A DNA stretch of 64,000 nt from Nitrospirota bacterium (GCA_963749655.1 CAVVOB010000033.1:1-64000), one strand, 5' to 3'. Counted from the first letter of the stretch, positions 5,034-64,000 are shown. Translations and numbers: made by a program. The notes: generated from the letters alone by a model not told the origin.

Positions 5034-5336
5034 GACTCCCGCTTTGTCGGCATCGCCGCGCAAGCTGTGACCGCCGCTTACTTATTCACGCCTATAAGAA
5101 GATGCCGGGCTGGAAGTGTTTAGGACGACAATGCTTCGACCGCTGCTTTTTTGAACGTTCACTCCTCTGCGGAGATGCCCCCTAACAGCGGAGATTTTTT
5201 ACGCTTTTGCGCTTGCACGCATTCACGCTTACCCGCTCTTTCATTGCTCTTCTTCAGCATTCCGCATTTCTTAAGACCTGACCGCCGGGAGCTCCGCCTG
5301 CTATAATATGGTAGAGTTCACCGGCAGGGAGGTTCT

Positions 5337-6522
5337 ATGGGTTTCGCAGGCAGACTGGAAGGCATCGCGCCTTCCGACATCTTCCAGATCATCAGTCAAA
5401 ACAGGATGACCGGCACGCTGATCGCGCGCTGCCGGGACGGGACCGCCATGGTCATCTTCAAGAACGGCGAGGTGATCGAGGCGGCGAGCGACGCACCGCA
5501 GGAGTCCCTCGGTTACCTCCTCGTGTCTCAGGGGCTTGTGAACGAGCAGACCATCGTGGCGGCCCAGGAGCGCCGGAAGCAGTCGCCCGAACATCACCTG
5601 GGCGCTGTTCTTGTGGACATGGGCGCGATCTCCGCAAAGGCCCTCCAGGCCGTTGTGCTCAGGCAGATCGAGCGCATCGTGAGCCGTCTGGTCTCGTGCG
5701 ACGATGGGTTCATCACCTTCGACCGCGGCGAGACGGCGCTTAAGCGCAAGCTCAATACGAACGAGTTCTTCCTTGACTCGGGCATCAGCACCGAATACCT
5801 GATGATGGAGCACGCGAGGGTCGTCGATGAGGAGCGCAGACACGGGTCCGACCGGCGGCGCGCCCAGGCCCTCGGCGTGGCTGATAGACATGCAGGGCCT
5901 GCGTCTGCAGCGGCTATGCCCGCGGTCTCATCGTGGTTCCGGGCGATCAGGCTTCCGAAGTCAACGGCTTTGGCCGGAGTCGCGCAGGCCGTGTTCCGGA
6001 AGGGGCGGCAGATCGCACGTTCTCTGATCGACCCGGTCCGCAGCGGCCTGATCCCCTGGCTCAAGACTGCATCGGGCAGGGTCCGCGCTTTCTCGCCTGA
6101 CGGCAGGGCGCTGATCTTCGCCGGTATCGGGTGCATCGCGGCAGGCCTCGTGCTCATGTTGTTAACCGGCCTCTGGTTCCCGACGACGGGAAGCGAACTC
6201 GTGGTTACCGGACGGGTCGTGAACCTCCGCTCCAAGCCCGCGGCCGGCGCGAAAGTGATCGCGCAGGCGTGCGCAGGGCGAGACGGTTTCAGCCATCACG
6301 TCCAGGGAAGGCTGGCACCAGGTGCGGACAAAGGCGGGCGACACCGGCTGGATCAGGCAGAATCTGGCCGAACGCAGGGAGAACAAGGGCATGGCGCGGG
6401 GCTACGGCAAGATCGGCTGCGGGCTTGTGATCATCGCGGGCATGACGTCGCTCATCGTGGGCATCATGCGAAGACGAAGGGTCGGGGCGGCTGCTCCGGA
6501 CGTTCTCCGCGAGAGCGAGTGA
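5337..6522 (+). CDS. DUF4388 (PATAN-like) membrane protein with C-terminal SH3b domain (frameshift ~6270)
   Basis: MGFAGRLEGIAPSDIFQII...TGTL; LGYLLV/LGAVLV; VNLRSKP...WHQVRT..GDTGWI. Confidence 0.7.
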
Positions 6523-6525
6523 ATG

Positions 6526-6558
6526 AAAAAGGACCGGCGTCCTGCTCCGGTCCTTTTT
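6526..6558. terminator. Bidirectional intrinsic terminator
   Basis: AAAAAGGACCGG-loop-CCGGTCCTTTTT between convergent genes. Confidence 0.75.
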
Positions 6559-6621
6559 CTGTTGGATCATGGTTTACGATGTTCTGGACGTTGTCATTAA
6601 AGGCCGGCCCCCGGGATGGTT

Positions 6622-7502: not shown

Positions 7503-7708
7503 CGAAGATGCCCCCTTCAAGCATACCTGTGTGCTGACGCGCTCTGATATGCGAGGCGTGCCTTCATAATGAGTGTCTGGTCTTCATTTTGGCGTCACGC
7601 CCTCCTGCGAACCGGATTACCGATCGTTAAATCATACATATCGCAGGAGCTGCAAAGCACCGTAGGAACCATCGTCCCCCTCGGGTCTCAGGAGCGAACG
7701 GGGTGACC

Positions 7709-8239
7709 CTAAATATTTTCAGCGAGGCTCTCCTTTTCATAGGCCATTACCCGCTCACGTTCCTCTGCTATTGACAGCGACTCAAGGTACTTCTCCATCT
7801 CAGCCGCACAGGGAAAAGCAGTCGGAATCTGCGCATCAGGGACGCAGACAACCAGGACCGTCCTCACAAGATCCATCACGCTGAATTCGAGAAGTCCGCG
7901 AATTTTTTCAGGCGTGGCCTGTGTGAGCCGGAGAGGATCGGGATGATACCAGCCATGGCTCTGAGGAGTAACGGACGCAGCGTCGATATCCTTCGTTTTT
8001 GCTGCGATCATGCCCTGTTTCGCCGCAAAAGCGGAAACATGGGTGCGAAGCAGCTGGATTCCCCGTACTGCCGGATTGGAGCAGATGCCGGCCTTTCTCC
8101 AGGAGAGCCGGCAGAACCGGGAGAGATTGATTCCGCAGGAGTACAGGTAGCTTTCCGGGCCGGGTCCCGGCTCCTCCCGGATCACGACATACAGGAAAGC
8201 GTTTTTATACTCGAACGAACGGATCGGCGCGGATTGCAT
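7709..8239 (-). CDS. Hypothetical protein
   Basis: 176-aa ORF with AAGGA RBS. Confidence 0.55.
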   Translation of the reverse strand: MQSAPIRSFEYKNAFLYVVIREEPGPGPESYLYSCGINLSRFCRLSWRKAGICSNPAVRGIQLLRTHVSAFAAKQGMIAAKTKDIDAASVTPQSHGWYHPDPLRLTQATPEKIRGLLEFSVMDLVRTVLVVCVPDAQIPTAFPCAAEMEKYLESLSIAEERERVMAYEKESLAENI

Positions 8240-8435
8240 GATCAGTATCCTTTCTTTCTACGCATCACGTTGCCTGCCCTATGCCCTGTAGGGGGCCCGG
8301 CTTAAAGATTGAGTTGCTTTTCCTTTTCAAGACTGCCACTGCTGCTTCCACTTCTTTCCGACTGTCTCTTCACTTCGGAGATACCCCGGGACAGTCGCAG
8401 GGTCTTTCTGAGTCTGACCCCATGGTTTCTCACAA

Positions 8436-9844: not shown

Positions 9845-9966
9845 TGATAATCATAGGAAGGCACCCCATATGTTCCGATCGCCCTTGAACACGGGTTTCC
9901 TCTCATTGTCGTGGCTCGTAATATGATATAGAGCGCCGGCGTGCACGATTCATAAAAACGGGCCAT
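9845..9966 (-). pseudogene. N-terminal relic of REP-associated tyrosine (HUH) transposase, RAYT/TnpA-REP
   Basis: MAR../IVHAGALYHITSHDNERKPVFKGD resembles the RAYT start MARPLRIEYPGALYHITSRGNERKxIF; GGAGG-like region upstream absent, ORF broken. Confidence 0.7.
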
Positions 9967-10135
9967 ATCGGAGGTTGTCAGTGTGGAACGGCAAAGTCCA
10001 ACATTAAAGGCCTGACCATTTAAGGTTTCGTTTGCCGCAGTATGATGAATTCAGGATGATGCGGAGCGGGCGGAATAGGGGGCCAGAATAGCAGAGAAAA
10101 GAGCTAAATTCAACAAAAGAGATGCGGGGTTTTCC

Positions 10136-10823: not shown

Positions 10824-11827
10824 ATGTTTAGTCCGATGTCGATTTTAAGAAGAATAAGCGAGTGGTTCAACACCGGCATTTCAAGCAGAGCCAGGATCAT
10901 CATCATCGCAGTCTTGATCGTGTTTTCACTCGGGTCCCTCTTTACCGCCTACATGATCAACGATTATTTCGAGAACAATCCCAATGCATGCGGCACCTGT
11001 CATGTGCATGATGACGCAAACGTGGCATGGTCGACGAGCGTCCATCATGGAATAAACTGCCATGAGTGCCACCATTCCACCAAGCTCGACCAGATGAAAC
11101 AGGTCTTCGATTTTGCCGTGCTCGGCCACAACAAGGTCTCGCCCCGGCACGGGGAAGTGATCGTGCCCTGGAAGACATGCTTTGGCTGCCATTGGGAAAA
11201 GAACGAGAAAGAGCCGAACGCGCCGAGCATCGCCGATTCGCGATACCACGCAAAGCATGTGTTCATGGAAAAGATCGAATGCACGAAATGCCACGGCTAC
11301 CGGACCCATCAGTTCAGCCTCGAGGAACGGTATTGCCTGACCTGCCACAAGGACCGGGAAGTGCACGGGACCGGGATGGAGAAGCTTGCGTGCCTCAACT
11401 GCCATACGGACAGGACCAAGGACCTCAAGCCGGGGGTCAAGAAGTGCCTCTACTGCCACGGCGCTGAAAAATACCGCAAGGAACTGCTGGCTGACGCGAC
11501 GATCGATGTCACCCATTTCCAGCCCGACGAAAAGACGATCAAGCAAGGCGATCAAGATCGACCGGCCGGAGAACGGGCCCATGCAGTTCAACTGCTATGA
11601 ATGCCACAAGCCGCACAAATCCTCACGGCCTGACTGGGGCAACTGCCTCTCGTGCCATAAGAACATCATGTCCGTCGGCAAGCACAAGACCCATATCCAG
11701 GACTGGCGGCATGAAATGCAAGGATTGCCACAAGCCCCATGTCTGGACAATATCGAATGAGCAGGCCAAGAAGACCTGCGTGGCCTGCCATGAATACAGG
11801 ACGCCGAAGGCATTTCTGGGCCGGTAG
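10824..11827 (+). CDS. Membrane-anchored multiheme cytochrome c, 11 CxxCH motifs (frameshifts ~11545, ~11705)
   Basis: N-terminal TM; CGTCH CHECH CFGCH CTKCH CLTCH CLNCH CLYCH + CYECH CLSCH + CKDCH CVACH. Confidence 0.85.
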
Positions 11828-12423: not shown

Positions 12424-12726
12424 AGGTCTCCTTCTTGAACTGTAGTTCTCCATTGTAAGACTTATTGGCGGTAAAAGCTCTAGAATTATTGTCATGATGT
12501 CATCCCTGTGAAAACGACTTTCTCTCGGCCGCGGGAGGTGAGGTGCAGAGGGGCGGAATACGAGGCTGCCTGGCAGAGAACAGAACTGAATGCAGCAAAA
12601 GAGACCTGACCCTAAAGGTCCTGGAACAAGCTGAAAGTTGGCCGCTAACGCTGACAGCTTTTTTTGTTAAAGACCTTATCCTATGATGTTCTCTTGCACT
12701 TCCTGTAAAATACATCTAGAATAGTC

Positions 12727-13923: not shown

Positions 13924-14229
13924 TCATTCTATGTGCGCCTTTGCCGTTTGGAGAGCAACGTCTTTATCCCGGGTAAACAGCCTCCACTTCATGCTTGATG
14001 AATGAATGCCTGCTTTCTTGTCCTGCCCTCTGCCGTAATACCAGTGACCAAAACGTTCGACCGTAGAAAAGGGATGATTGCCTGTACAGAGAAACCCGCA
14101 AGGCTTTATCTCTTTGAAATAAAGAGTTTCCTCCGGGGCCTCATCAAAAGACATATCTGCAGGCAATTCGATTTGAGATACATCCGCCTTCTCTTCTTCC
14201 TTTTCATCCAGCCAGTCTGAAATTTTCAT
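13924..14229 (-). CDS. Hypothetical protein
   Basis: AAGGAG RBS; MKISDWLDEK.. Confidence 0.55.
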   Translation of the reverse strand: MKISDWLDEKEEEKADVSQIELPADMSFDEAPEETLYFKEIKPCGFLCTGNHPFSTVERFGHWYYGRGQDKKAGIHSSSMKWRLFTRDKDVALQTAKAHIE

Positions 14230-14675
14230 TTGATTATGATCTCCTTCAGAGATCCAACAACGTTCGAGGCTGCTCAACAAGGTGCCACTGAAGCCTCCGG
14301 GGCAGCTTTTGATCGGCAGCTCGAGGATTCTCTCGATCCTGCCGCAGGCGCTGACAAAAAGGCGCTTCCCAGGCATTCGCATAGTTTACCCCCGGGATGA
14401 TCAAAGTATACCATGGTCGGGAGGTCCTTCCTCGAGCACTCAGCTGTCAGCTTGAGGCTTGAGCAAACTACATTTAACTGCTGCAGCCGGGTTAAGGACA
14501 AACGTGCAACTTCTCTTCTCCGAGATAAGCGGAAGATTACAAGGTTAGCAGGAAGCCCGGCCGCAGATTTATTGTTACGGCTCAGCCCTAGTGGAAGGCG
14601 GTAGAACAGGACATCAGATATTGAGCAAAGTCGTCCGTTAACGACCCGACCCTACGATGTTCCCTGTATTGAAAC

Positions 14676-15968
14676 TTATTCCTCACGAGGACCCCATTCG
14701 GGGTCCCAGTTCTTCTTCACCAGTTCGATAAACTCGTCAAGGTACGCGGCCGATGCAAGCGTTTTTCCTTCTCGCAGGCTCTTCCAGTCCATTTCCGGAA
14801 CATAGTAACCCTGCTTTTCATGTTCTTCGGCGGCCTTTTTCCGCGCCCCGGCGTCCGGCTCGAGTCTATAGAGAACGTATCCGCCTTCGCGTTTGTCGAT
14901 CATTGCTTGGGGACTATATCGGCCGAGGCTCAGCGGCAGCTTTGCTCCGGTCTTAAGCTTGTGTACCGTCTGCCCAAGCGAGGGGCCGATAAAGGGAGCA
15001 GGCGGCCTCGGATTCGAGCTGTCAACCGTTTTCATCGTTTCCCTCCGCGGCGTGCGCAGTCTCAGCAGAATTGCTTTGATAAAATCCTCGCGTTTGCCCA
15101 CATCGGCAAGATGTTCTTTCCTGAGCTCCTCGTTCGTGATCCTTTCTCCCATCTGGTCCGCTTTCCATTCCGGAAGTCTCTGCTCGATGATGTCGATCGC
15201 GCGCTTTGCATCAAGCCCTGCTTCAAGCAGAAGGTCGAGGATCTTCATCCGTTCCTGCCTTCCCTTCGCATAAGCGGGCCGCCATCCAAAGGCGAGGCTG
15301 CAGACGGGGTTCAGGTCACAGATCGGGGAGGATGTGTCGGGATCGGCTCCCGCATTCAGCAAGAGAGATGCGGCTGCGGCATTTCCTTCGCTGCAGACAA
15401 CGGAAAGCGGGGTCCCCGGGAACTCGCCGGGAAGCTCCTTATTGAGAGGAAAAGTTTTCTCATCGACCAGGTACTTGAAAACATCCAGGCCGTCGGTCCG
15501 CGTGACCGCGGCGGAGAGTCCCTGCCTCCCGACGCTTCCTCCGAGCTTGAGGGCCCACCGTACTTTTGTGATCGTTTGACCGCTGTCCCCGTTCCCGAAC
15601 ACAAGAATGTAGTCGACATTCCGCGCCAGCACATAACTCCAGTCCCAGACCGGGCTCTGCGATCTGTCCGCTTTATCGAGCAGCGCCGGTACTGCGACGG
15701 CGAGCAGCGCCGCACAGACGACGCCGGCGTATCCGAAAAAGAAAAACTTTGCTGAATCAACGTGGCCGAGGCGCCAGAGGAGCAGGCTGCCGATGAGCAT
15801 CTGCGAATAGGCAAAGACCATGACCCAGAGCAGAACCCATAACAGGAGAGCTTTGCCCATCCCGCTGGCAGGGCCCGAGCTTGTGGGACTGCGGAACACG
15901 ACACCGCAGGCCAGAAGCAGAAGAAGAACGAAAAGAGAACTTCCGATAAGGTAGATTTTCGCGGCCAT
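14676..15968 (-). CDS. Membrane-anchored ankyrin-repeat protein (possibly two genes joined)
   Basis: N-terminal TMs; GTPLSVVCSEGNAAAASLLLNAGADPD ankyrin motif; internal RBS+ATG at 15035. Confidence 0.65.
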   Translation of the reverse strand: MAAKIYLIGSSLFVLLLLLACGVVFRSPTSSGPASGMGKALLLWVLLWVMVFAYSQMLIGSLLLWRLGHVDSAKFFFFGYAGVVCAALLAVAVPALLDKADRSQSPVWDWSYVLARNVDYILVFGNGDSGQTITKVRWALKLGGSVGRQGLSAAVTRTDGLDVFKYLVDEKTFPLNKELPGEFPGTPLSVVCSEGNAAAASLLLNAGADPDTSSPICDLNPVCSLAFGWRPAYAKGRQERMKILDLLLEAGLDAKRAIDIIEQRLPEWKADQMGERITNEELRKEHLADVGKREDFIKAILLRLRTPRRETMKTVDSSNPRPPAPFIGPSLGQTVHKLKTGAKLPLSLGRYSPQAMIDKREGGYVLYRLEPDAGARKKAAEEHEKQGYYVPEMDWKSLREGKTLASAAYLDEFIELVKKNWDPEWGPREE

Positions 15969-15982
15969 GTTGGTTGTGCTCC

Positions 15983-16143
15983 TTACAAACCCCAAATGGG
16001 GCCATCAATGTTCTCTTTCCGGCGGAAGTACCCCGTGACAGCCGCAGGGTCTTTCTGCAAGCATGCCACTGTCTCCTTATAGCCGTATTCTTTTGCCAGA
16101 ATACTGAATAGCCGTCGAGCCGTCAAGATATTTATAGCTCTTC
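15983..16143 (-). pseudogene. Probable C-terminal HTH relic of RAYT-type transposase
   Basis: ARRLFSILAKEYGY..VA..LQKDPAAVT.Y resembles the HTH tail of long RAYTs. Confidence 0.5.
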
Positions 16144-16563: not shown

Positions 16564-17487
16564 TTATAATTTCCGTGGGACCCCGGTTTTCGTCCGCTCC
16601 TGAAGAAAGCGCTGAACTTCCGAGAGCGTCGGGATTCCCGTGCGTGCCCCGACTTTCCTGCACTTCATTGCCGCAACAGCCGACGCAAACCGGACCGTGT
16701 CTTCGAGAGGCAGCTTCCGGATAAGACCATAGAGATAGCCGGCGTGAAATGCATCACCGCAGCCGGTCGTGTCGACAACGTCGACGGGAAAGGCAGGGCA
16801 GGAAATGACCACATCGCCTGCAAAGGTGACGCTTCCGCGGGATCCGAGGGTAACCGTCGTGGTCCTGAAGCCCTGCTTCCTGACCTCCTGCCGGAACGAT
16901 CCTGGATCGTCCTTCCACCCCAGCATCTCTCCGGCGAACTCTTCCGAAGCGACCACATAATCGCAAAGCCGGGCAAGCTCGAGCATCCACTCTCTGGTCT
17001 TGCCTGCGTCAAGCATCACGGGCACGCCCGACTTCCGGGCCTCTCCGGCAGCGAAAAGCGAAATATCCTTCATCACGCCGTCCAGGAGCAGAAAATCCGC
17101 GCCTTGCAGGAAATCGGGCGGGAGTTCTTCCACCCGAAGCGGATCGCCCGAAGGCCGTTTCCAGAATATCGTACGCGTTCCCCGGGATTTGTCGATGACA
17201 ATGAACGCCTTCTGGGACAGGGAATCCACTCTCGTGACCACGCCGGTGATATCGACGCCTTCGTTGATCAGCGACTGCCGGATTGCCGCTCCCTCCCGTT
17301 CATCTCCGGTAACACTGTAGAACCTGCAGGGAACGCCGAGACGCGACAACGCAGCCATCTCGTTTCCGAGCGTCCCCCCTCCCTGCTCTTCCCAGGTCAG
17401 CACTTCCTTTTTTGTGTCGATCTGCGGATAGTGATCGACCATTGCGAGCGTGTCCCACGCACACTGCCCGACTCCGACAACTGCCAT
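16564..17487 (-). CDS. PfkB/ribokinase-family sugar kinase, paralog 1
   Basis: VVDTTGCGDAFHAG, AAMKCRKVGAR; closely similar to 57039-57950. Confidence 0.88.
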   Translation of the reverse strand: MAVVGVGQCAWDTLAMVDHYPQIDTKKEVLTWEEQGGGTLGNEMAALSRLGVPCRFYSVTGDEREGAAIRQSLINEGVDITGVVTRVDSLSQKAFIVIDKSRGTRTIFWKRPSGDPLRVEELPPDFLQGADFLLLDGVMKDISLFAAGEARKSGVPVMLDAGKTREWMLELARLCDYVVASEEFAGEMLGWKDDPGSFRQEVRKQGFRTTTVTLGSRGSVTFAGDVVISCPAFPVDVVDTTGCGDAFHAGYLYGLIRKLPLEDTVRFASAVAAMKCRKVGARTGIPTLSEVQRFLQERTKTGVPRKL

Positions 17488-17505
17488 AGATCCCCTCAGT
17501 GCCCA

Positions 17506-17574
17506 AGGGTCAGACGGCCGCACTTCTTCTGATCACAGATTTTTTACTGATTGCAGCAAACGAGACCTGACGCT
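17506..17574. repeat. REP-like inverted repeat AGGGTCAGAC...GAGACCTGACGCT
   Basis: Arms complementary; right arm nearly identical to 12591-12613. Confidence 0.65.
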
Positions 17575-17595
17575 ATAAGGTTCCCCGCGGGAAAC

Positions 17596-18364: not shown

Positions 18365-18563
18365 TTAGGTTTTCCTTTCGTCGCCTTTCTTGCATGCCCA
18401 AGAAAAGGTGACCCAAAGAAGGCACGGGGACCCCGCGACCATTCTTTGGCCGTCACGCTCGGTCGGACTCGGTACATTTCGGAAACTCGCCCTGCGGGCT
18501 CAGACGGCTTGAAATGTTTAACCCTCGTCCTCGGTCGCCTGCCGGGAATGGCCGCATGGGGGA
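18365..18563. repeat. Structured intergenic MITE-like element
   Basis: CTTTCTTGCATGCCCAAGAAAAG..AACTCGCCCTGCGGGCTCAGAC nested hairpins; single copy here. Confidence 0.45.
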
Positions 18564-18566: not shown

Positions 18567-19214
18567 CTAGGCGACTTTTCGAATAATAACGTGCGTCGCC
18601 CGTTCACCGGGTGTGGTCCCGGCGCATGCATACCCCAGTGCCCGCATATTGATCCCGTTCAGCAGATGCTCGCCGGCGCCGAGCAGGACCGGCCGGACCA
18701 CGAGATGGAGCTCGTCGATCAACCGGGCGTTCAGATACTGCCGTATCGTGGCCACGCCGCCGCCCAGGCGGATATCCTGTCCGCCGGCAGCGGCTCGTGC
18801 CTGCTCCAGGGCGGCATGGATGCCTTCGGTCACGAACCGGAATTCAGTGCCGCCCTTCATCACGATCGGCCGACGCGCATGATGTGTCAGCACGAACACC
18901 GGCACGTGGTAGGGCGGCTCCTCCCCCCACCACCCCTTCCAGCTGTCATCCGGCCACGGACCCCGCACAGGACCGAACATGTTCCGTCCCAGGATCCACG
19001 CACCGATATTCACAAAGCTCTGCTCCGCCAATCGGTTGTCCACGCCCGTCTCGCCGCCTTCCTTCCCGTGCATGCGCTGCCACATCCGCGTCCGGAAGAA
19101 CCACTCGAACAACTCCGGCCCGTGCGTGCCTAAAGGGTTCTGAAGGCCCTGGTCGGTCCCGGCGCCATACCCGTCAAGGGATAAAGAAAAGCTGCTTACC
19201 TTGAGCTTTGACAT
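18567..19214 (-). CDS. Dihydrofolate reductase-like (RibD C-terminal) protein
   Basis: SLSLDGY, ILGRNMF, VFVLTH, IRLGGG, IDELHL..PVLLGAG. Confidence 0.9.
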   Translation of the reverse strand: MSKLKVSSFSLSLDGYGAGTDQGLQNPLGTHGPELFEWFFRTRMWQRMHGKEGGETGVDNRLAEQSFVNIGAWILGRNMFGPVRGPWPDDSWKGWWGEEPPYHVPVFVLTHHARRPIVMKGGTEFRFVTEGIHAALEQARAAAGGQDIRLGGGVATIRQYLNARLIDELHLVVRPVLLGAGEHLLNGINMRALGYACAGTTPGERATHVIIRKVA

Positions 19215-21307: not shown

Positions 21308-21352
21308 GGTCAGGTCTTGCGGTTTGACAGGCAGCGCTTTCACTGACTTTCA

Positions 21353-21470
21353 GTGGAGCCCCCTCCGGCAACCCGACCTGTCGGAACTCAAAATCATAAC
21401 GACCTCCCGCCTGCACCCGCCGTTTACGAGTGCGGATGCACGGAGTGCCGGGTGGAACTGCGAACTTGCG
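21353..21470. repeat. Dispersed element GTGGAGCCCCCT.., copy A
   Basis: Aligns with 43764-43880. Confidence 0.7.
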
Positions 21471-22521: not shown

Positions 22522-22988
22522 CGACCGCACAGGGTCAGGTCTTTTATTTTGGTGTTGAAGAACATGTGTTTAGTTCAAGCGGCACACCACTTCAGGCCAG
22601 GTCCTTTTTTAAAGTTCTTCTCCGATGCCCCCGTAGACCTCTTACGATCAGATAGTGTCCCTGTTATTTTCTCGCCAGGTTTGTATCCAGATTTGCAAGC
22701 ACCTGCCTGCTAGCGGCCTTTGCCAGATCGATGAGCTTGGGGTGAAGCGCCTTGCGACCGCACAGGGTCAGGTCTTTTATTTTGGTGTTGAAGAACATGT
22801 GTTTAGTTCAAGCGGCACACCACTTCAGGCCAGCGTCCTTTTTTAAAGTTCTTCTCCGATGCCCCCGTAGACCTCTTACGATCAGATAGTGTCCCTGTTA
22901 TTTTCTCGCCAGGTTTGTATCCAGATTTGCAAGCACCTGCCTGCTAGCGGCCTTTGCCAGATCGATGAGCTTGGGGTGAAGCGCCTTG
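22522..22988. repeat. Tandem duplication, 233/234 bp units (22522-22754, 22755-22988)
   Basis: Near-identical units differing by small indels; includes REP-like site and 3' end of adjacent gene. Confidence 0.9.
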
Positions 22989-27003: not shown

Positions 27004-27019
27004 GTTTATTCCTTAAGGA

Positions 27020-27233: not shown

Positions 27234-27266
27234 TTATATACACACATCACCGCATAAACGCATACC

Positions 27267-27611: not shown

Positions 27612-27630
27612 CACGTTCTCCGATCTTATA

Positions 27631-27769: not shown

Positions 27770-27771
27770 TT

Positions 27772-28756: not shown

Positions 28757-28776
28757 GTTTGGATCAGATCGGCAAA

Positions 28777-28852: not shown

Positions 28853-28854
28853 GT

Positions 28855-49451: not shown

Positions 49452-49510
49452 GGATGACTTTACGATGAAACTGCCGGACCTGTCAAGAGGCGATCAGAAG
49501 AGAAAAACTT

Positions 49511-49607
49511 CACCGCGAGGGCGCAAGGAGCGCGAGGACGTCAAAATTCAAACAGTCTGTAGTAAAATCCGTCTCGATTTCCTCGCGACCATCGCGCCTT
49601 CGCGGTT
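49511..49607. repeat. Nonamer-period inverted repeat (CGCGAGGGC / CCTTCGCGG)
   Basis: CACCGCGAGGGCGCAAGGAGCGCGAGG ... CCTCGCGACCATCGCGCCTTCGCGGTT; same family at 2911-3008 and 35771-35853. Confidence 0.75.
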
Positions 49608-49625
49608 CCACGGCTTGCCTGGTGT

Positions 49626-50608: not shown

Positions 50609-51169
50609 TCACCTCGTGGGTTCGTAGCACAGCAGCACATTTCCGTTCTTGAAGGTCCGCGTTTTTGTCAGCTTCAGCACTTGTTTGTCTTTCATACCCT
50701 CGAACAGAGTTTTCCCTTTGCCGAGAACAATGGGGTTCACGATGATCTGGTATTCATCGATCAGGCCTTCCTGGGCCAGTTGTGATACGATGCTGCCGCT
50801 TCCCATGATCACAATGTCCGGACCGCCTGCTTTTTTCATCTTGCGCACCTCAGCAGCAAGTCCGTCGTTCACCAGCCTCGTGTTGTTCCATTCTGCCTTT
50901 TTCAATTTTTTCGAGAACACGACTTTCGGCATTTCATTCATGGCTTTGGCTACAGCCGGCGCTTGCTGCATCGCCAGGGGGGTCGGCCACCAGCTCGCCA
51001 TCAGCTCGTAGGTCTTTCGCCCGTAAAGAGCTTCGCCTCCGCCTTTTGCGTTTCCGTTCACGAAATCGATCCACTCCGGGTCCTGCTTGTGCGCCCAGCT
51101 CATATCGCCCTTCGCGTCCGTAAAATATCCGTCCAGGGACACTTGATTGAACACAATCACTCTTCTCAT
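50609..51169 (-). CDS. Dihydrofolate reductase-like (RibD C-terminal) protein
   Basis: VSLDGY, GRKTYE, KVVFS, GSGS, IDEY..NPIVLGKG. Confidence 0.9.
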   Translation of the reverse strand: MRRVIVFNQVSLDGYFTDAKGDMSWAHKQDPEWIDFVNGNAKGGGEALYGRKTYELMASWWPTPLAMQQAPAVAKAMNEMPKVVFSKKLKKAEWNNTRLVNDGLAAEVRKMKKAGGPDIVIMGSGSIVSQLAQEGLIDEYQIIVNPIVLGKGKTLFEGMKDKQVLKLTKTRTFKNGNVLLCYEPTR

Positions 51170-51185
51170 GGAAGACCTCCTTTAC

Positions 51186-51605
51186 TTATGATTCGCTGCG
51201 ACAAGCCTGCTGATCACCAGTCCCGCACTTTCCTGCTCTCGCCTCGACCAACCTGCCCCCAAACCATGAATAAGGCAGGGAGAGCGCAATCAGGGACAGC
51301 GGATACCAGGCCGGTCCGAAATTCCACAAGACAATCGCTCCGCCTGTGCTGAGCAGCACGCCGATGCCGCCGAGGATCAGCGCGTGCAGCATCGGCTTCT
51401 TAGGCGCCAGGCGCGCCGTGATATAACAGCCGATGATCGAATAGATGCCGCGATAAAACGACGCGAGCAGCAGCAACCCCGTATTGTACATCGGTTGTCC
51501 GGGCGGAGGAAATACTCCGGCTGCGTGCATCAAGGCGTCCGTTCCCGTATGGGTAACGAAAATAAACAGCAAGCCAGCAAAAACCGCTCCAATGCTTTTC
51601 AGCAT
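51186..51605 (-). CDS. Hypothetical 4-TM membrane protein
   Basis: GCYITARLAP..PMLHALILG..GPAWYP. Confidence 0.7.
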   Translation of the reverse strand: MLKSIGAVFAGLLFIFVTHTGTDALMHAAGVFPPPGQPMYNTGLLLLASFYRGIYSIIGCYITARLAPKKPMLHALILGGIGVLLSTGGAIVLWNFGPAWYPLSLIALSLPYSWFGGRLVEARAGKCGTGDQQACRSES

Positions 51606-51623
51606 ACGATCACCCCCTTTTCG

Positions 51624-52514
51624 TTATACCTTCTCCAAATGACCTCTCACGGCGTTGAAAACCCGCTCAGGCACAGCCAGACGGCCATCTTCATCAGCGT
51701 ACATCCTGCGGATTTCCTTGAACGAGACATCCGGATCGCGCGTAAGCTCGGCGAGCCGGTCGAAGAAGACCAGCTTCCTTTTCTCCTGCAGACTGCTGCC
51801 CGGCCTCGGCATCGGTCCCCAGCCGTCCCATTGCAGCATCTCCCTCTTGTTCAGTGCGGCAAAATCCCGGATCAGGACGTCGGCTATGAACCAGAGTCCG
51901 CGCAGATCGCCCGCGATGATGCCGAACTTGCCGGCATCTGCCTTTCCCGTCCGGCATCCTGCCCATGCATCGCTCGCGACGATGAACCGGTCGCGCGGCA
52001 CGTCGAGCACATTGTGTTTGATGCGCATGTTTTCACTCCATACTGCATCGAACTGAGGATCAACAAGCACCCATCGGCCCTCGGCTTCGTTCCAGTATTC
52101 AGCGAGGGAGTGGTCCTCGAAATAGCCGGGATTGAAATACGCGCCGAACCCGTACCGCGCTCGGGCGGGGATGCCCTTTGCGCGCAGCATCGCGATGAGC
52201 AAGACGGCAAAGTGGCGGCAGACGCCGACCAGGCGCTTTTCCGGCTTTCGTTCGACGGACAGCGGCCGGTCGTCGAGAGCAGTCAACGCCCCCAGCATGC
52301 TTGTCACGGGACGGATATGGCTTTCGTTCTTTCGCTCTTCCGTGGGCTCGTATCCATAAAATGATGCTGCAGTAAATTCGTGGATCGCCAGCCCCTGCAC
52401 AATGCTCGTGAGCTTTTTTACGTCATCCGGCAATTTCGCAACAAGCCCTCTGTATTTCCCGAGGCTTGTCATCGGTCCTGCTGTGGAATAATACCGGGCA
52501 ATCAGTTTGTTCAT
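51624..52514 (-). CDS. Transglutaminase-like domain protein
   Basis: GVCRHFA..LRAKGIPARARYGF..DH..AEYW..WVLVD triad. Confidence 0.85.
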   Translation of the reverse strand: MNKLIARYYSTAGPMTSLGKYRGLVAKLPDDVKKLTSIVQGLAIHEFTAASFYGYEPTEERKNESHIRPVTSMLGALTALDDRPLSVERKPEKRLVGVCRHFAVLLIAMLRAKGIPARARYGFGAYFNPGYFEDHSLAEYWNEAEGRWVLVDPQFDAVWSENMRIKHNVLDVPRDRFIVASDAWAGCRTGKADAGKFGIIAGDLRGLWFIADVLIRDFAALNKREMLQWDGWGPMPRPGSSLQEKRKLVFFDRLAELTRDPDVSFKEIRRMYADEDGRLAVPERVFNAVRGHLEKV

Positions 52515-52531
52515 GCGAAGTCACTTCCTTC

Positions 52532-53171
52532 TTACCGCCGCATACTTTCTTTCCCGTCGGTCATCTCGACTGATCCTGTTTTCAGTTTACCCGCAAGTCT
52601 GTACACATTGATGACCACCCCTGTGTTTGTTGTACTTGAACTCACCAGCTTCAGGGTGCGCGGAACGGATCCGCTGCCGAACAGACGTTTGCCTGTCCCG
52701 AGCGTTACCGGAAGTGTAAGCAGGCGGTACTCGTCAATAAGGTCGTTCTGGATCAATGTCTGCGCCAGATCCCGCGCTGCCGTGGACCTGCACCTCGTTG
52801 CTGAAGCGCTTCTTGATCTCTGCAACCTCCTTGACCACATCGCGGACATGAAATGAATTGTTCCACGAAAACGTTGTCCGCGTCCGCGATGCCACGAACT
52901 TGGGCAGCGAGTTGAGCTTGGTTGCGACCAGATCGTTCGGGTCCGTGATCTTCGGCCACCAGGATGCGAAGATGTCATATGTCCCGCGGCCAAGCAGGAA
53001 GGCATCCGCTTTCGAAAAGATCTCTGCTATTGTTTTACCGCCGTCCTCGTCAAAGTACGGAATTACCCAGCCTCCGTTGGTGAAGTTGCCGCTCTCATCC
53101 TCGCCCGGACCTCCGGGCGCCTGCATTACGCCGTCGAGAGAGACAAATGTTGTGATAGTCAGTTCAGCCAT
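52532..53171 (-). CDS. Dihydrofolate reductase-like protein (frameshift ~52775)
   Basis: VSLDGVMQAPG, LLGRGTY, IDEY..PVTLGTGKRLF. Confidence 0.88.
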
Positions 53172-53197
53172 GATGTCCTCCTCAGTCTTAATCCTCC

Positions 53198-53256
53198 GGT
53201 TACTTCGCCGAGCCTGTTGACTCAATAAGAGCCTTCAGCTTGTCGAGAATCTGCTC
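53198..53256 (-). pseudogene. C-terminal relic of an SRPBCC/AHSA1-type gene
   Basis: EQILDKLKALIE..* ending just before the RBS of the next gene. Confidence 0.4.
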
Positions 53257-53362
53257 TTTTGCCGGCTTGGTAATATGTACAATTTTATTTGCCGCATCAT
53301 CACCATCAAATTCCTGACGTCCTCAGCGTCCTCGATGGCTACGGTAACCGCGAAATGCGGGT

Positions 53363-53426
53363 TGCTATCGCTCCGGTTCACCGGCGGGCCGCGCAGCGGA
53401 CCGTCCGCTGCAACCGGTTGTTAGGC
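53363..53426 (-). other. Integron attC site (degenerate core)
   Basis: GCCTAACAACCGGTTGCAGCGGAC..GCCCGCCGGTGAACCGGAGCGATAGCA: RYYYAAC inverse core, palindromic arms, right after stop codon. Confidence 0.7.
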
Positions 53427-53431
53427 CGCCC

Positions 53432-54061
53432 TCACTGACGCACATAGCGCACGTGTGTGGCGGCTGGACCATCAAGAACCCTGTCAATGCGAAACTGCGG
53501 CCCGGGCTCGCGTAGGTTCTCGAAGAGACGCCGCCCGCCGCCGAACAACACGGGTGCCAAGGCGATTTCCAGCTCGTCGACGACACCCAGGTTCAGGTAC
53601 TGCTGGATCACATCCGCGCCACCCGCGATACGAATATCACGACTGCCTGCGGATTTCCGAGCCAGCTCCAGGGCACGCTCCGGCCCGTCATTGATGAAGT
53701 AAAAGGTCGTCCCACCGGGGCGCACCCAGGGTTCGCGTTTCTCATGGGTAAGAACGTATACCGGTGTGTGAAACGGAGCCTCCTCTGGCCAGGCGACCTC
53801 GCCTTGGTCGAACATTCGCTTGCCCATGATGTTGGCACCGATGCGCTCCGTGGTGCTGCGAACCAGGTCATTGACCGGGCCGGTCTCTCCCCCTGGTCCG
53901 AGCTTGAGGTTGTCGCGGAAGTACTGTTGATTGATGATCCAGGCCATCAGCGCACCCCACTTCGCGCCCCAGTTCTTGTACTCAGGCTTGCCCATGGTCA
54001 TTCCTTCCGGTGCCATGTAGCCATCGAGGCTAAGTCCAATGTTGACGAATACTTTGCTCAT
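53432..54061 (-). CDS. Dihydrofolate reductase-like protein, gene cassette between two attC
   Basis: LSLDGY, IMGKRMF, VYVLTH, IAGGA, VDEL..PVLFG.GRRLF. Confidence 0.9.
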   Translation of the reverse strand: MSKVFVNIGLSLDGYMAPEGMTMGKPEYKNWGAKWGALMAWIINQQYFRDNLKLGPGGETGPVNDLVRSTTERIGANIMGKRMFDQGEVAWPEEAPFHTPVYVLTHEKREPWVRPGGTTFYFINDGPERALELARKSAGSRDIRIAGGADVIQQYLNLGVVDELEIALAPVLFGGGRRLFENLREPGPQFRIDRVLDGPAATHVRYVRQ

Positions 54062-54094
54062 GATTCTCCTCTCGCATGTTCGGATGTCGGCCTG

Positions 54095-54150
54095 GTTCAA
54101 CGTTTGAATTAAACCGCGGCGCGAAGCAGCGTCGGCTTGAATCGTTAGGC
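54095..54150 (-). other. Integron attC site (aadA-like)
   Basis: GCCTAAC-GATTCAAGCCGACGCTGCTTCGCGCCGCGGTTTAATTCAAAC-GTTGAAC with GTTRRRY core. Confidence 0.75.
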
Positions 54151-54174
54151 GTATGCCTTGTCGTGCATCGGCAG

Positions 54175-54756
54175 TCAGCGCTCGACGGCGTACCGAACCA
54201 GGAGCAGGCTCGAGCCATCGAAGGTGCGGGTGTCCAGCAGGCGAAGCGAGCCGGGCGGCCGGGTCTCGAATGCCCGGACACCCTCACCGACAACGCCGGC
54301 GCCGATCATAAAATGCAGCTCATCGACCAGGCCGGCGGCGAGAAGGTCGTTCCAGAGGACGTGACTGCCAAATACCAGGATTTCCCGCCCCAGCCCCTTC
54401 TTGAGTGCCGCGACCTCCGCGTGCGCACGAGCACGCCGAACGACACGGGTCGGGCCCCACCCCGCGACTTCGTCGGGCTTCAGGCTGTTCGAGACCACGA
54501 CCTTCTCGATGGCGGTGTTGAGACGCGAGATCTCGCGCTCCACAGCCGGCTGGCTCACGTCCTCGGCGATCGCGGGCCAATAGGACCGGAAGGCCTCGAA
54601 CGACTTACGCCCGAGTAGCAGCGTGTCGGCCGCCCGGAGTCGCTCCGCGTTGTAGTCGGAGAAGCCGTTGTCGAACGGCATGGCCATGATGTCCCCGCCT
54701 GGGCCGGAGTAAAACCCGTCGAGTGAGATGATGTTGCAGACGATGAGCTTACGCAT
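54175..54756 (-). CDS. Dihydrofolate reductase-like protein (cassette)
   Basis: ISLDGF, LLGRKSF, KVVVS, FGS, VDEL. Confidence 0.88.
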   Translation of the reverse strand: MRKLIVCNIISLDGFYSGPGGDIMAMPFDNGFSDYNAERLRAADTLLLGRKSFEAFRSYWPAIAEDVSQPAVEREISRLNTAIEKVVVSNSLKPDEVAGWGPTRVVRRARAHAEVAALKKGLGREILVFGSHVLWNDLLAAGLVDELHFMIGAGVVGEGVRAFETRPPGSLRLLDTRTFDGSSLLLVRYAVER

Positions 54757-56483: not shown

Positions 56484-56495
56484 TGCACGCTCCAT

Positions 56496-57038: not shown

Positions 57039-57950
57039 TCAGAGACGATGGGCTATGCCCCGCTCCTGAAGAAATTGCAGCACTTCCGCGAGCCTCGGGA
57101 TGCCCGCCCGTCCGCCGAGCTTCCTGCATTTCATTGCAGCAACAGCCGATGCAAACCGGATCGTGTCTCTAAGCGGCCACTTTTGAAGCAGACCGTAGAG
57201 GTAGCCGCCGTGAAATACATCGCCTGCGCCGGTCGTGTCCACTGCCTCGACGGGAAAGGCAGGGCAGGAAATAATTTCCTCGCCTGCAAAGGTGACGCTT
57301 CCCCTGCTGCCGAGAGTGATGGTCGTGATGCCGAAGCCGAGCTTTCCGACCTCCTGTCTGAACGATCCAGGATCATCTTTCCATCCCAGTTCCCTGGCAA
57401 ACTCCTCGGACCCGACCACATAATCGCTCATGCGGGCAAGCTCGAGCATTCCCTCTCTCACCCGGCCTGCATCGACCATCACGGGAACGCCCTCTTTCCT
57501 GGCCTGCTCGGCGCTGAAGAGCGAAACATCCTTCATCAGACCGTCGAGGAGCAGAAACTTCGCGCCTGCGAGGAAATCGGATGAAAGTTCTTCGACGCGG
57601 AGCGGATCGCCGGTCGGCCGTTTCCAGAAGATCGTACGCGTCCCCTTGGATTTGTCGATGGCAATGAACGCAGTCTGGGACGAGGCCTTCGCTCGCTTGA
57701 CCAGGCCCGTTGCATCGACTTTTTCGTCTATGAGGGACTGACGGATTGCAGCGCCTTCCCGGTCATCTCCGATAACGCCGTGGAACCGGCAGGGCACGCC
57801 GAAACGGGACAAGGCAGCGAGCGCCGATGCGACCGGCCCGCCGCCCTGCTCTTCCCACACAAGGGCTTCCTTTTTTGTGTCCGCCTGCGGGAAGCTGTCG
57901 ACAACCGCGAGCACGTCCCAGGCGCATTGCCCGATCCCCACAACTGTCAT
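57039..57950 (-). CDS. PfkB/ribokinase-family sugar kinase, paralog 2
   Basis: QGGGPVA, AVDTTGAGDVFHGG, AAMKCRKLGGR. Confidence 0.9.
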   Translation of the reverse strand: MTVVGIGQCAWDVLAVVDSFPQADTKKEALVWEEQGGGPVASALAALSRFGVPCRFHGVIGDDREGAAIRQSLIDEKVDATGLVKRAKASSQTAFIAIDKSKGTRTIFWKRPTGDPLRVEELSSDFLAGAKFLLLDGLMKDVSLFSAEQARKEGVPVMVDAGRVREGMLELARMSDYVVGSEEFARELGWKDDPGSFRQEVGKLGFGITTITLGSRGSVTFAGEEIISCPAFPVEAVDTTGAGDVFHGGYLYGLLQKWPLRDTIRFASAVAAMKCRKLGGRAGIPRLAEVLQFLQERGIAHRL

Positions 57951-59342: not shown

Positions 59343-59531
59343 TTTAGCGTCTCATATCTCCTGCACGCCGCGTGTCAACGTTCCCAAAGTGGCTGTGTGT
59401 GGTTTCAAAATAGCAATTTTCAAGTCAGACACTCTGCAGCTCCCTTAGTCTGTTTGTGACTGGCCTCCGTAAGAATTTTATAGTTGGCTTTACAATATTG
59501 GCTCTGAAGTCCTTGCACAGCGCCCCTGTCG

Positions 59532-61542: not shown

Positions 61543-61730
61543 AATCGTCTCCGCAAAGGCCGATGTTGTCAGACATCGGAAATTAAGATTTTGATATCAT
61601 CATCTTTACGTTATAAATGCGATGTCCCTTTTTCTCTCTGCAACCGGATGCTTACTACCGGTAGGATTGGGGACAATGTCTCTCATTTTGCATATCTTCA
61701 AGTCTTTCCTTCGCTCTCTTTATATCATCA

Positions 61731-63035
61731 TTACCAAATAGGCCCCATGAACAACCAACGGAGTGCGACGCGTTCCTCGGCCGTCCCGCCGTTGAAGCGC
61801 GCAAGCGTACGCTCAGCACGGCCGTTTCTTGACTGGAGCAGGTCATACCTCGTTGCCATAGTCTTCGGCAAGGTGGTGGTTGCACCCGAGGCGAGAGTCC
61901 ATTCCTGCCAGGTGATTGCATTGCAGAGATCGAAGTCGTACTTTATACGAAAGACGGACAAATAAGGATCGGCAAAATACGTATAATCAGGCGGGTCCGG
62001 AACCGTTCCGCCGAGCCCGACAAGTTCATCGGCCAGGGTGGTATCTGTCTGATACGAGAGAAGCGCACCGGGCTTTACCCAGTCATACGCGATATACTCT
62101 TCAATTGTCCAGTAAGGATCTATGCTACTCGATATTCCGCTCTGCACAAGATCGGTGACGGTCATGCCCGACATGATGCCGCTTGATGCCTGCATGTTGC
62201 CGATGATGCGTGCAAGAATGCCATCTATTCCGGGATAGGCGGAAGGAAGGCTCAGCTCCATAGAGAATCGAAACAACAGCAGATCGTTCATTGCGTCGCT
62301 GTTCCACTGCATGGTGATCAATGACCCACTGCTCGAACTAATCAGGGAATCTGCAAGGTTTCCCTCGACGGACCTGAACTCTGCGGGCAGAGCTGCTTCC
62401 AATACATCCACGGTCTGCAGTAGGTGATCGGACAGGATAGGATCGACGCTCAGGGAAGCCATGGATGAAACGCTTCTATTCAACACGGCGCGCTGATGCA
62501 GCTGATTCGTCGTCATGATCATCAGCAAATTGACCAGTTCGCGGTCCGCGTCGGTAAAGGTTGAAAACGGGGGCTGCGAAAGCTTCGGCTGCAGGTCGAC
62601 GAACGAAGCAAGTACTGCCAGATCCAGCTGTTCCGGTGTAATGCCCGAAGTCCCGGCAGCCTGGATCACGTCCCACATCAGCTGATCGACCGAGGTTGCT
62701 TTTGCATCGACGTCTGCTGCGGCCTGATAGTTCGTTCGAAAGGTCTGAAGGACCGTTGGAAGCGCATCGACAAAAGGCGTCAGGTCTACACCGTTGCCGA
62801 GGGAATCCTGGAAAGCCTGCGCGCTGTTCTTTGCGGCGGCTCCGAGTTCAGCGGCATATGCCGTAGTCGTTACGCCGGACCGTGTCGTAAACGTTACGAT
62901 AAGGTCGGCCACGCTGGTAAGATCCACGGTGTTCGGGGGAGGCAGCGGCCCGGGCTCGTCCTTCTTGTTTTTGCCGCAGGCGTAAGCCAGGCTGAGAGAA
63001 CATACCATAAGGAGAACCATGATTTTTTTGCACAT
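61731..63035 (-). CDS. Hypothetical lipoprotein
   Basis: Lipobox-like LAYACG; acidic 434-aa ORF. Confidence 0.65.
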   Translation of the reverse strand: MCKKIMVLLMVCSLSLAYACGKNKKDEPGPLPPPNTVDLTSVADLIVTFTTRSGVTTTAYAAELGAAAKNSAQAFQDSLGNGVDLTPFVDALPTVLQTFRTNYQAAADVDAKATSVDQLMWDVIQAAGTSGITPEQLDLAVLASFVDLQPKLSQPPFSTFTDADRELVNLLMIMTTNQLHQRAVLNRSVSSMASLSVDPILSDHLLQTVDVLEAALPAEFRSVEGNLADSLISSSSGSLITMQWNSDAMNDLLLFRFSMELSLPSAYPGIDGILARIIGNMQASSGIMSGMTVTDLVQSGISSSIDPYWTIEEYIAYDWVKPGALLSYQTDTTLADELVGLGGTVPDPPDYTYFADPYLSVFRIKYDFDLCNAITWQEWTLASGATTTLPKTMATRYDLLQSRNGRAERTLARFNGGTAEERVALRWLFMGPIW

Positions 63036-63386
63036 TGGCAACACAGTGATTCCTCCTTTCGATGCGATAGCGTGTTGAAGCACGATTTGAGTTGCGGATT
63101 CTTCGTCTTAACCTGTTGCCGGATTGGCACCTGATGGAGGGACACGGTTGATGGAACGAGAATAAGATAATCGGACGGAAAAGGCAAGTGTCTCGATGGG
63201 GTATTTTTGGGGGAGAAGATTTTAAAGCGGTTTTGAGTTGTGAGTGTTGAGTTTTGAATTGCTACCAGGTCCCCATTGCTCTCCCCAGTTTTCCGGCTTT
63301 CGACAACCAGCGGTTGCCGATGTGTACCGGACCCCGGGTTTCCGCGCTCTTCGCGCCCTGGGGTAAACCGTTTGTTGCTCTGTTTT

Positions 63387-64000
63387 TTAGGTTCTCGGGG
63401 TCAATTTGTATCTCCGGGAACGGCAATTTTCAAGTCTCACCTCCTCGGTCCTGCCACAAGCTGCCGGCGCTTCCGGGCCGGCGTTCACCTTGACTGCAAA
63501 GTACAGATACCCTATGGCCATTATGAAGAAGACGATCGACGAGGCGGGCACGTGAATGCCCGCGAGCAGGAGCAGCGTGGGAAGGACGACGGCCGGCGTG
63601 AGCGCCACCGCTGCGAGCCGGTACAGGGCATCGGAGTCGAGCGGGGCCCTGAGCTTTTTCACAAAGATCATCCCGATCCCGGCGTAGATCATCGTCTGGA
63701 AGAACCGGTAGACAAAGTCGCCTGCCAGCATGACCGGATAGGCGACGATGCCGAAATATTTCCCGAACGCCCGGACCCAGCGGTCCACAATGTCGCGGTC
63801 GATGGAGGCGTCGGCCCCGGACAGGTTGTAGACCTTCGCCGCGTCCCTCTGCGGACTTCGGAACATGATCTGGTCCCCGGTGAGGAGCACTGTGGCGTCC
63901 GTCTGCTCGAGCGAGATGATCCCGCCCGAGGTATCGATGACCATGAACGGCGTGCGGCCGTCGGACTCCAGGATGGTGTACGGAACCGGCCGGTCGATCG
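63387..64000 (-). CDS. DUF1189-like membrane protein (5' part outside window)
   Basis: VIDTSG; LYRLAAVALTPAVVL..GYLYFAV. Confidence 0.7.
   Translation of the reverse strand, partial: IDRPVPYTILESDGRTPFMVIDTSGGIISLEQTDATVLLTGDQIMFRSPQRDAAKVYNLSGADASIDRDIVDRWVRAFGKYFGIVAYPVMLAGDFVYRFFQTMIYAGIGMIFVKKLRAPLDSDALYRLAAVALTPAVVLPTLLLLAGIHVPASSIVFFIMAIGYLYFAVKVNAGPEAPAACGRTEEVRLENCRSRRYKLTPRT
63397..63442. repeat. REP-like inverted repeat at 3' end of last gene
   Basis: GGGGTCAATTTGTATC..GCAATTTTCAAGTCTCACCT. Confidence 0.6.

Follow-up and report, generated by a model that had tools for sequence, protein, structure and literature searches.

The question raised by a 64,000-nt stretch of DNA from a Nitrospirota bacterium (GCA_963749655.1, CAVVOB010000033.1:1-64000; at its full length, the window) is what the short sites ending in TGACCC are that recur between its genes. 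A sequence-only reading of this DNA had proposed that they could be hairpin sites resembling repetitive extragenic palindromes (REPs), used as equivalents of integron attC sites by a HUH nuclease of the REP-associated tyrosine transposase (RAYT) type to capture or shuffle single genes. The window is contig C33 of an assembly of 39 contigs and 4.27 Mb (G000), and comparison with the other contigs and with related genomes leads us to a different answer: most of the sites are very probably terminal inverted repeats (TIRs) of TIRtrons, elements encoding a TIRYT, that is, a RAYT-like HUH/Y1 tyrosine transposase with a C-terminal helix-turn-helix (HTH) tail, and the window copies are relics of such elements. 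Each TIRtron is a unit of ~945 bp with one TIRYT gene between two inverted repeats of ~25-35 nt. This assignment would do away with a claim, attractive but without support, that a new HUH-driven cassette system is present, and place puzzling intergenic motifs in an element class that has been described and is biochemically unstudied.

The intact form of the element is found on contig C23, where three units of ~945 bp, at most 9 kb apart, carry the motif core GACCTGACCC inverted at both ends as TIRs, with one gene inside. Relative to copy B, the other two elements are 91% and 72% identical; the gene is intact in copy B (283 amino acids) and frameshifted in copies A and C, and two of the gene copies encode proteins that are 95% identical. 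The transposase matches Pfam Y1_Tnp (E 2.6e-13 and 2.3e-14), exceeds the cut-off of the NCBIfam model NF047646, 'REP-associated tyrosine transposase' (86.4 and 90.1 bits; cut-off 80), and reaches 16.3 bits with the IS200 model NF033573 (cut-off 55). The proposed link between the sites and a RAYT-type HUH enzyme is thus borne out, and an intact RAYT gene flanked by the same arms was located among the three C23 elements. Three paralogues, 34-39% identical, are encoded on C13, C28 and C30; the motifs NHYH, FQGRY and RYVVLNP are common to copy B and these paralogues, with NHVH and NHIH in the latter. In total, the assembly carries three transposase gene copies plus fragments and contains at least two TIR families, the GACCTGACCC type around the C23 genes (family 1) and a second with the tip GGGGTCAGACAT (GATGTCTGACCCC-type ends) around the C13 and C28 paralogues (family 2), with a third variant possible. 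The C-terminal tail of the transposase also gives a hint of a sigma-70-type HTH (E 0.001). The idea that the -35 box of the gene lies in the TIR was dropped, a consensus scan having called no promoter in the TIR region of copy B. The C23 elements (C23:120001-140000) lie in a dump of mobile elements inside a type I restriction-modification locus, where HsdM is split into pieces and where two identical transposase genes of the IS66 family and a zeta-toxin-like gene are also present; the arrangement of zeta gene and TIRtron recurs at 91-94% identity in one genome of the same genus.

The geometry of the element is conserved well beyond this contig. The 15 genomes of the genus that were compared hold 117 copies of the TIR, 0-24 per genome and at least one in 14 of the 15, with 20 in G000 at E<=0.1. 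Among them, 28 form 14 adjacent inward-facing (-,+) pairs, 13 of which span 891-952 bp and one 1152 bp, while the next adjacent pair is 92 kb apart. Forty-eight loci encoding relatives of the transposase were also examined, mostly in bins labelled Nitrospirota, and also in bins of Deltaproteobacteria, Thermodesulfobacteriota, Rhodoferax, Actinomycetota and others. In the 22 loci with a full-length gene, the upstream TIR ends ~26 nt before the start codon (21 loci), the downstream TIR follows right after the stop codon (18 loci), and both TIRs are present in 17. Near-identical copies occur across several metagenome bins.

With the element in hand, the sites of the window can be sorted. All the strings quoted in the sequence-only reading are present where it placed them, and the 8-mer CYTGACCC occurs 11 times in the window against an expectation of 4.32 +/- 1.96 (none of 100 shuffles reached 11), with two matches inside coding DNA of the presumed 'core' block (40993 and 42041). 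Genome-wide, the sites form a small family containing GACCTGACC, with an A/T-rich stretch before it and CTA after it. A position weight matrix (PWM) trained on the six ends of the three C23 elements, and thus on no window sequence, gave 17 genome matches at >=20 bits, compared with none in the reversed genome, and 23 compared with 2 at >=18 bits. Four of the 11 non-training matches at >=20 bits lie in the window (22553, 22786, 9997 and 12591), which makes up 1.5% of the assembly; as 22553 and 22786 belong to one tandem duplication, these four count as three independent sites. A hidden Markov model (HMM) built from 21 copies, all outside the window, found the same four sites (E 8.6e-5, 1e-4, 0.0021 and 0.31), with 17563 and 14639 marginal. 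Hence the genome scan that had been suggested as a check recovers a real family with models that contain no window sequence.

A sequence-only covariance model (CM), run on the window with filters off and with three window copies in its training set, matched the previously cited positions 12591, 17506-17574 (right arm only), 22531 and 22764 at E<0.01, 14640 (0.065), 21308 (0.27) and 8399 (0.84) at E 0.01-1, and 5264, 13616 and 7573 at E 1-10; up to E=10 it gave no match at 58321, 59413, 61690 and 63397-63442. The degenerate recurring site is therefore a true repeat family, but one that covers part of the 14 positions cited for it only, four of them at E<0.01 and four without a match, and two good copies, at 9992-10030 (family 1) and 61568-61598 (family 2), were absent from the earlier list. 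We count the sites at 9992, 12589, 17549, 22522, 22754 and 61568 as TIR copies and those at 14639, 21308 and 7572 as marginal ones; those at 5264, 13616, 58321 and 61690 are not TIR copies according to the models. Among the 'related ends' that had been listed alongside the sites, 9810 and 22651/22885 find no support, and 14656 and 17577 belong to the outer flanks of the TIRs that lie at 14639 and 17549. The closeness of the sites to stop codons says little here: validated copies lie between 11 and ~340 nt from the nearest stop, and with co-directional genes each spacer is in any case located between one stop and the next start.

For the weak sites (5264, 13616, 58321 and 61690, perhaps also 8399, 59413 and 63423), chance matching to a short and loose consensus is the somewhat likelier origin. 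Their CM E-values are above 0.8 or there is no match, the reversed genome yields 46 PWM matches at 14-16 bits for 75 in the real one, and the CYTGACCC core is also found in coding DNA of the core block, as mentioned above. On the other hand, 59413 and 63423 have in common an exact 14-mer that is unique to them in the genome (two exact occurrences vs none in the reversed genome; five vs one with up to one mismatch), and 8399 is similar to family-2 ends.

The window itself holds relics and no working element (Table 1). Remnants of its own transposase genes are present, and three copies (7572-7641, 9872-10030 and 12527-12622) retain parts of the gene or of its leader and are therefore decayed elements, the last still aligning with the leader of the intact elements. 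Overall, the relics are of several kinds: ends with bits of gene or leader, gene-less solo ends, a miniature doublet, an end cut by an intron, and an end that was copied again in a 233-bp duplication. The marginal relic at 14639-14665 is located 11 nt from the stop codon of the open reading frame (ORF) 14676-15995. In the doublet at 17506-17585, the right arm, which was outside the CM training set, is matched with E 5.5e-4 in the window and E 0.037 at genus scale, and a comparable doublet is found on C28 (130028-130110). When eight ends were folded as single-stranded DNA, seven were no better than shuffles (z -0.44 to +0.98) and one had a z of -2.28, and the fold of the doublet is no better than shuffles (z -0.17), so that the view of the sites as REP-like hairpins is not upheld. 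ORF 22898-23599 was considered as a possible decayed transposase and rejected, the ORF being unrelated to transposases.

Table 1. TIRtron-related features of the window, including marginal and tentative ones
Feature	Position	Strand	Basis
Degenerate family-1 left end: TIR, last codons of the transposase and 3' flank	7572-7641	-	BLAST of element B, 76% over 71 nt, E 1.3e-5; CM weak, E 4.6
Possible family-2-like relic, weak (cited earlier as 8399-8420)	8405-8424	+	Family-2 HMM E 3.4; CM E 0.84
Transposase N-terminus remnant (residues 5-32)	9872-9955	-	tblastn of 283-aa protein, 61% over 28 aa, E 0.003; start-codon region aligns
Family-1 TIR, promoter-proximal (right-end) type	9992-10030	+	PWM 24.8 bits; non-window HMM E 0.0021; CM E 2.6e-7 in window
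Family-1 TIR, right-end type, adjoined inwardly by ~60 nt of decayed transposase leader	12589-12622	+	PWM 20.2 bits; HMM E 0.31; CM E 1.6e-5; aligns to element right ends
Marginal family-1 TIR relic, core and conserved outer flank	14639-14665	+	CM E 0.065; HMM E 2.6
Miniature doublet (69-80 nt)	17506-17585	.	Right arm 17549-17585 (+) is a family-1 TIR; left arm 17506-17520 is a weak inverted match
Truncated family-1 TIR, with a group II intron 5' end in place of its outer part	21308-21327	-	PWM 17.3 bits; CM E 0.27; intron by Rfam
Family-1 TIR, left-end (gene-distal) type, no transposase gene	22522-22556	-	PWM 32.5 bits; HMM E 8.6e-5; CM E 7.2e-8
Second copy of the preceding TIR, product of the tandem duplication	22754-22789	-	PWM 32.5 bits; HMM E 1e-4; CM E 6.9e-8
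Tandem duplication, 233/234 bp	22522-22988	.	Repeat families D4 and D6, 95-100% identical
Tentative degenerate third TIR variant	59413-59431	+	Exact 14-mer in common with 63423; terminal TGACCC degenerate
Family-2 TIR (GGGGTCAGACAT type), promoter-side leader, no gene	61568-61598	-	nhmmer, 9 non-window family-2 copies, E 3.6e-6, 28.6 bits
Tentative degenerate third TIR variant	63423-63442	+	Exact 14-mer in common with 59413

How the element moves may be reflected in duplications at its tips. Each unit of the 233/234-bp duplication consists of the 3' end of ORF 22898-23599, a spacer and the TIR, and the junction is located exactly 10 nt outside the TGACCC of its TIR. On a smaller scale, 23 of 63 TIR-like ends from the 48 related loci carry a tandem duplication; on the inner side, taken as control, the count is 5 of 63, and among random 44-mers from G000 it is 52 of 3000. 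The unit of these stutters is 8-17 nt long, with at most one mismatch, and is present in two or sometimes three copies; its start is 0-6 nt away from the T of TGACCC, and the first unit ends 6-11 nt beyond TGACCC. Stutters directly outside the TGACCC tip were seen at loci L031-L078 and also on C13 (72252) and C20 (89948). Within one element the units differ between the two ends, and hence the stutters are not a classical target duplication; at copies B and C no target duplication is visible. Based on the positions of these repeats, we hypothesize that the enzyme recognizes the TIR and nicks and rejoins one DNA strand ~6-11 nt outside TGACCC, which would move the whole unit without a visible target duplication, and that the stutters and the 233-bp repeat are by-products of this reaction, produced by an occasional re-copying of the tip.

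Extending this idea, TIRs, including gene-less relics, may still be live sites of nicking and rejoining for TIRYTs supplied in trans, with the break ~6-11 nt outside TGACCC and with the stutters and the 22522-22988 duplication as scars of one and the same reaction; we regard this as a rather unlikely extension of the TIRtron assignment. If it were true, clustered relics would be hot spots at which neighbouring genes are duplicated, deleted or reshuffled, a weak and non-integron form of the earlier proposal. The stutters at 23 of 63 ends, together with the junction 10 nt outside a solo TIR, provide a concrete and testable guess at the cut site of a TIRYT, and this signature of end duplication is the only lead here that is worth an experiment. 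A literature search, to which figures and supplements were out of reach, found no publication that pairs TIRtrons or TIRYTs with tandem duplications, and in the available text of both TIRYT papers the term 'tandem duplication' has a count of zero.

The proposal of an integron-like array, in which a HUH enzyme captures, excises or shuffles single genes at attC-like sites, has some observations in its favour, starting with the genuine link to the enzyme. The copies cluster in a variable and mostly co-oriented region, as seen from the four of 11 independent PWM matches in 1.5% of the genome, one TIR lies at the edge of a rearrangement, and ORFs 7709-8239 and 13924-14382 are found at 88-90% nucleotide identity in same-genus genomes in changed contexts, often within ~1.3 kb of a TIR or transposase copy. 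Also, the inward-facing pair 7572/9992 encloses two unrelated ORFs; however, both tips of a transposase gene remain in this interval, which is for this reason equally well or better read as a gutted element. Against a cassette array, no TIR pair among the 117 copies in the 15 genus genomes encloses cargo, and a scan of 131 window ORFs revealed no integrase, no recombinase and no intact RAYT, the sole mobile-element enzyme being a group II intron reverse transcriptase. The validated sites have mixed orientations (-,+,+,+,+,-,-,-) and lack hairpin structure, the motif is adjacent to the 13924-14382-type ORF in only one of four relatives, and the intervals between sites, described before as mostly single, same-strand ORFs, hold 1-4 ORFs, some on both strands. 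Co-orientation also spans 44-64 kb, where the only relics belong to other TIR families and where 21 of 21 Pfam-supported ORF pieces are on the minus strand; as this strand bias and the GC skew run well past the motif-bearing region, the same-strand orientation of the genes is not tied to the motif. Blocks of homology coincide with ORFs at 70-90% identity when block edges are compared with site positions, so that recombination at the sites looks the same as plain divergence of the spacers. With no recombinase, fold, uniform orientation or cargo pair to support them, attC-equivalents and HUH-mediated gene capture are highly improbable. The ORFs 7709-8239 and 13924-14382 have no family match, and their similarity to same-genus homologues does not extend beyond the ORF; in all five loci examined, the 7709-8239-type ORF has a TIR or transposase copy within ~1.3 kb.

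Even less credible is a view of the motif as a homing target, the partner of the exon-binding site, of a group II intron, recurring through past intron insertions. It would explain why the 5' end of the only full intron of the window sits directly after the GACCTGACC of the TIR at 21308-21327, and why a 3' intron fragment on C27 is flanked by a family-2 and a family-1 TIR, but five intron copies or fragments have no TIR in common in their 3' exons, the intron is single-copy in G000 apart from one fragment, and 17 of 22 loci without an intron have the motif at fixed distances on either side of the transposase gene. The intron of the window is complete (19393-21307, minus strand), with Rfam matches for D1-D4 and domain V/VI and a reverse transcriptase/maturase ORF at 19607-20815; the C27 fragment is 244 nt long and 86% identical. 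A more serious rival, although still doubtful, holds that solo ends and doublets are non-autonomous units, similar to REPs/REPINs or miniature inverted-repeat transposable elements, copied in trans by the TIRYT rather than left by decay. Doublets do exist at 17506-17585 and on C28, several solo copies have no gene remnant, clusters of same-direction solo copies occur in other genus genomes, and TIR families are present as singles, dimers and clusters according to Di Nocera et al. (PMC3733652). In contrast, copy numbers are low (0-24 per genome), three window copies kept gene or leader remnants, many solo right ends in one relative adjoin 5' gene fragments, and G000 has no identical solo copies in different contexts, the tandem duplicate excepted.

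The decayed TIRtron thus remains the explanation that we prefer, and several points weigh against it. Most solo copies (17549, 22522, 22754, 14639 and 61568) have no transposase remnant and could have spread as ends alone, and so need not stem from decay. A genus search with three stretches of element plus flank found shared flanks and no clean empty site, the best candidates holding a different gene; the mobility of the family and the exact ends are therefore drawn from the comparison of copies alone. The C-terminal match to HTH_23 (E 7.5e-5) is, at 22.9 bits, below the Pfam cut-off of 24.6, and a single-sequence phmmer search with the transposase against PDB sequences gave no match at E<=0.01. 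Only 2 of 37 TIR-like ends in G000 are stuttered, and the family-1 tip (AGGGTCAG or GTGTCAGG) matches the GGGGWSAS of published TIRs at best in 7 of 8 positions. Furthermore, G000 is a bin (86.6% complete, 5.8% contamination), and the linkage of C23 to the window is therefore an assumption. Finally, the available portions of the literature on the class report no experimental activity or biochemistry for any TIRYT.

The TIR relics are concentrated in the first 23 kb of the window, which have a reduced G+C content, many ORFs without a family match and no synteny with relatives; none of 14 same-genus genomes is syntenic with the site-bearing region. NCBIfam and Pfam assign no function to most of the small ORFs between sites, and an Rfam scan gave no match at any site. 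The GC skew declines steadily along the window, which suggests an ordinary strand bias, possibly caused by replication. In one DNA sequencing run, searched as contigs, just 0.05 of the sampled words were present. Several genes are split between reading frames, namely TauE, a multihaem cytochrome c, a DHH/DRTGG/DHHA2 protein, an AlkZ-like glycosylase and RibD_C (4013-5030, 10824-11757, 29521-31223, 45185-46250 and 52535-53225), and are either genuine pseudogenes or assembly indel errors. Two paralogues of PfkB-family kinases (16564-17523 and 57039-57950) are 78-79% identical in DNA, the similarity ending at the ORF ends, and at least five consecutive RibD_C-domain (dihydrofolate-reductase-like) paralogues are located on the minus strand at 50612-54756, with another at 18567-19214. 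The window also contains repeats of other types. A ~120-bp repeat at 21349-21470 has a second window copy at 43808-43878 and ~20 near-full-length (>=113 nt) and ~26 partial copies in G000, 80-94% identical, whereas an intergenic repeat of ~180-270 bp at 18380-18560 has 5-6 copies in G000 and many in same-genus genomes; neither has an Rfam family, the scan of these two giving nothing meaningful. In one relative (L016, 9215-12910), three copies of the latter alternate with single genes and a transposase fragment. Other intergenic repeats are a CGTCG-rich one with a 10-nt period (26465-27772 and 31355-31394), a AACTCAAAACT-type repeat by tRNA-Glu/tRNA-Gln genes (28112-28967, 39951-40079 and 63219-63260) and a GCGCCTTCGCGGT-type inverted repeat (2974-3017, 35770-35855, 43184 and 49501-49609).

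Among known systems, integrons resemble the locus superficially, in the short sites between mostly co-oriented and functionally unrelated genes of a variable region, and differ from it in having a tyrosine-recombinase integrase, attI/Pc, a folded bottom-strand attC, a uniform site orientation and a one-gene-per-site rule. REPs, as in the REPtrons/REP-RAYT systems and REPINs of E. coli (TnpA-REP) and Pseudomonas, are imperfect palindromes that bear a GTAG/CGTC tag and number from tens to hundreds of copies, and the REP-RAYT gene is single-copy and vertically inherited. A HUH/Y1 gene between inverted cognate short repeats, with gene-less copies and doublets in intergenic DNA, is common to these systems and the elements described here; in contrast, the latter have no palindrome, only ~20 copies and a multi-copy gene. 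Elements of the IS200/IS605 family lack TIRs, have subterminal hairpins and encode a protein of ~150 amino acids with a Y...Q motif. They belong to the same catalytic superfamily (Pfam Y1_Tnp), and the lack of a visible target duplication at copies B and C is a further likeness, whereas the C23 transposase falls short of the IS200 cut-off, as given above, and hairpins are absent from the ends of its elements.

The closest match is found in three papers on RAYT-like genes. Di Nocera, De Gregorio and Rocco (2013) named TIR-flanked RAYT-like genes 'TIRtrons' and their proteins 'TIRYTs'; many, not all, of the TIRs have a GGGGWSAS tip, and the members of a TIR family are moderate in number (PMC3733652). 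The proteins have an HTH_23/DnaA_C tail and the motifs NH[YF]H, FQ and Y..LNP, and are associated with no hairpin REP (PMC3733652, PMC6006769). Quentin et al. (2018) placed most TIRYTs in subclass 2.1 of TnpA-Y1, which is characterized by NH[YF]H/NHVH, FQ or W[EQ] and Y[IV]HLNP/YIELNP, a median length of 238 amino acids, HTH_23/HTH_28/DnaA_C tails and the lack of a REP. It is frequent in epsilon-, beta- and delta-proteobacteria, with 1.9 copies per genome on average and an identity of 49% between copies (PMC6006769). The corresponding group 1 of Bertels et al. (2017) is the RAYT group most like insertion sequences (PMC5581495).

The elements of G000 have in common with TIRtrons a RAYT-like HUH/Y1 gene, terminal inverted repeats at a fixed distance in place of hairpin REPs, and TIR copies as singles, dimers and clusters in moderate numbers; the GGGGWSAS tip is matched exactly by family 2 (GGGGTCAG). 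With subclass 2.1 they share NHYH, FQ and YVVLNP (copy B), a length well above the 150-residue core, the lack of REP hairpins and prevalence in delta-proteobacteria-like anaerobes, and possibly also a C-terminal HTH of the HTH_23 type (here below the Pfam cut-off), this assignment being made by the published motif table (Table 1 of PMC6006769). They differ in that two copies are 95% identical in protein, compared with the published 49% (PMC6006769), and in that a genome has several copies, with three members of one family, 72-91% identical, on a single contig, so that they look more insertion-sequence-like than the mostly single genes described before (PMC3733652). Judged by motifs and end structure, protein and ends thus appear to fit TIRtrons/TIRYTs, subclass 2.1 and group 1 of Bertels et al., a known architecture from which the several copies would be the difference, and in this genus a multi-copy TIRtron family is available in intact as well as decayed form, along with two TIR families and miniature derivatives.

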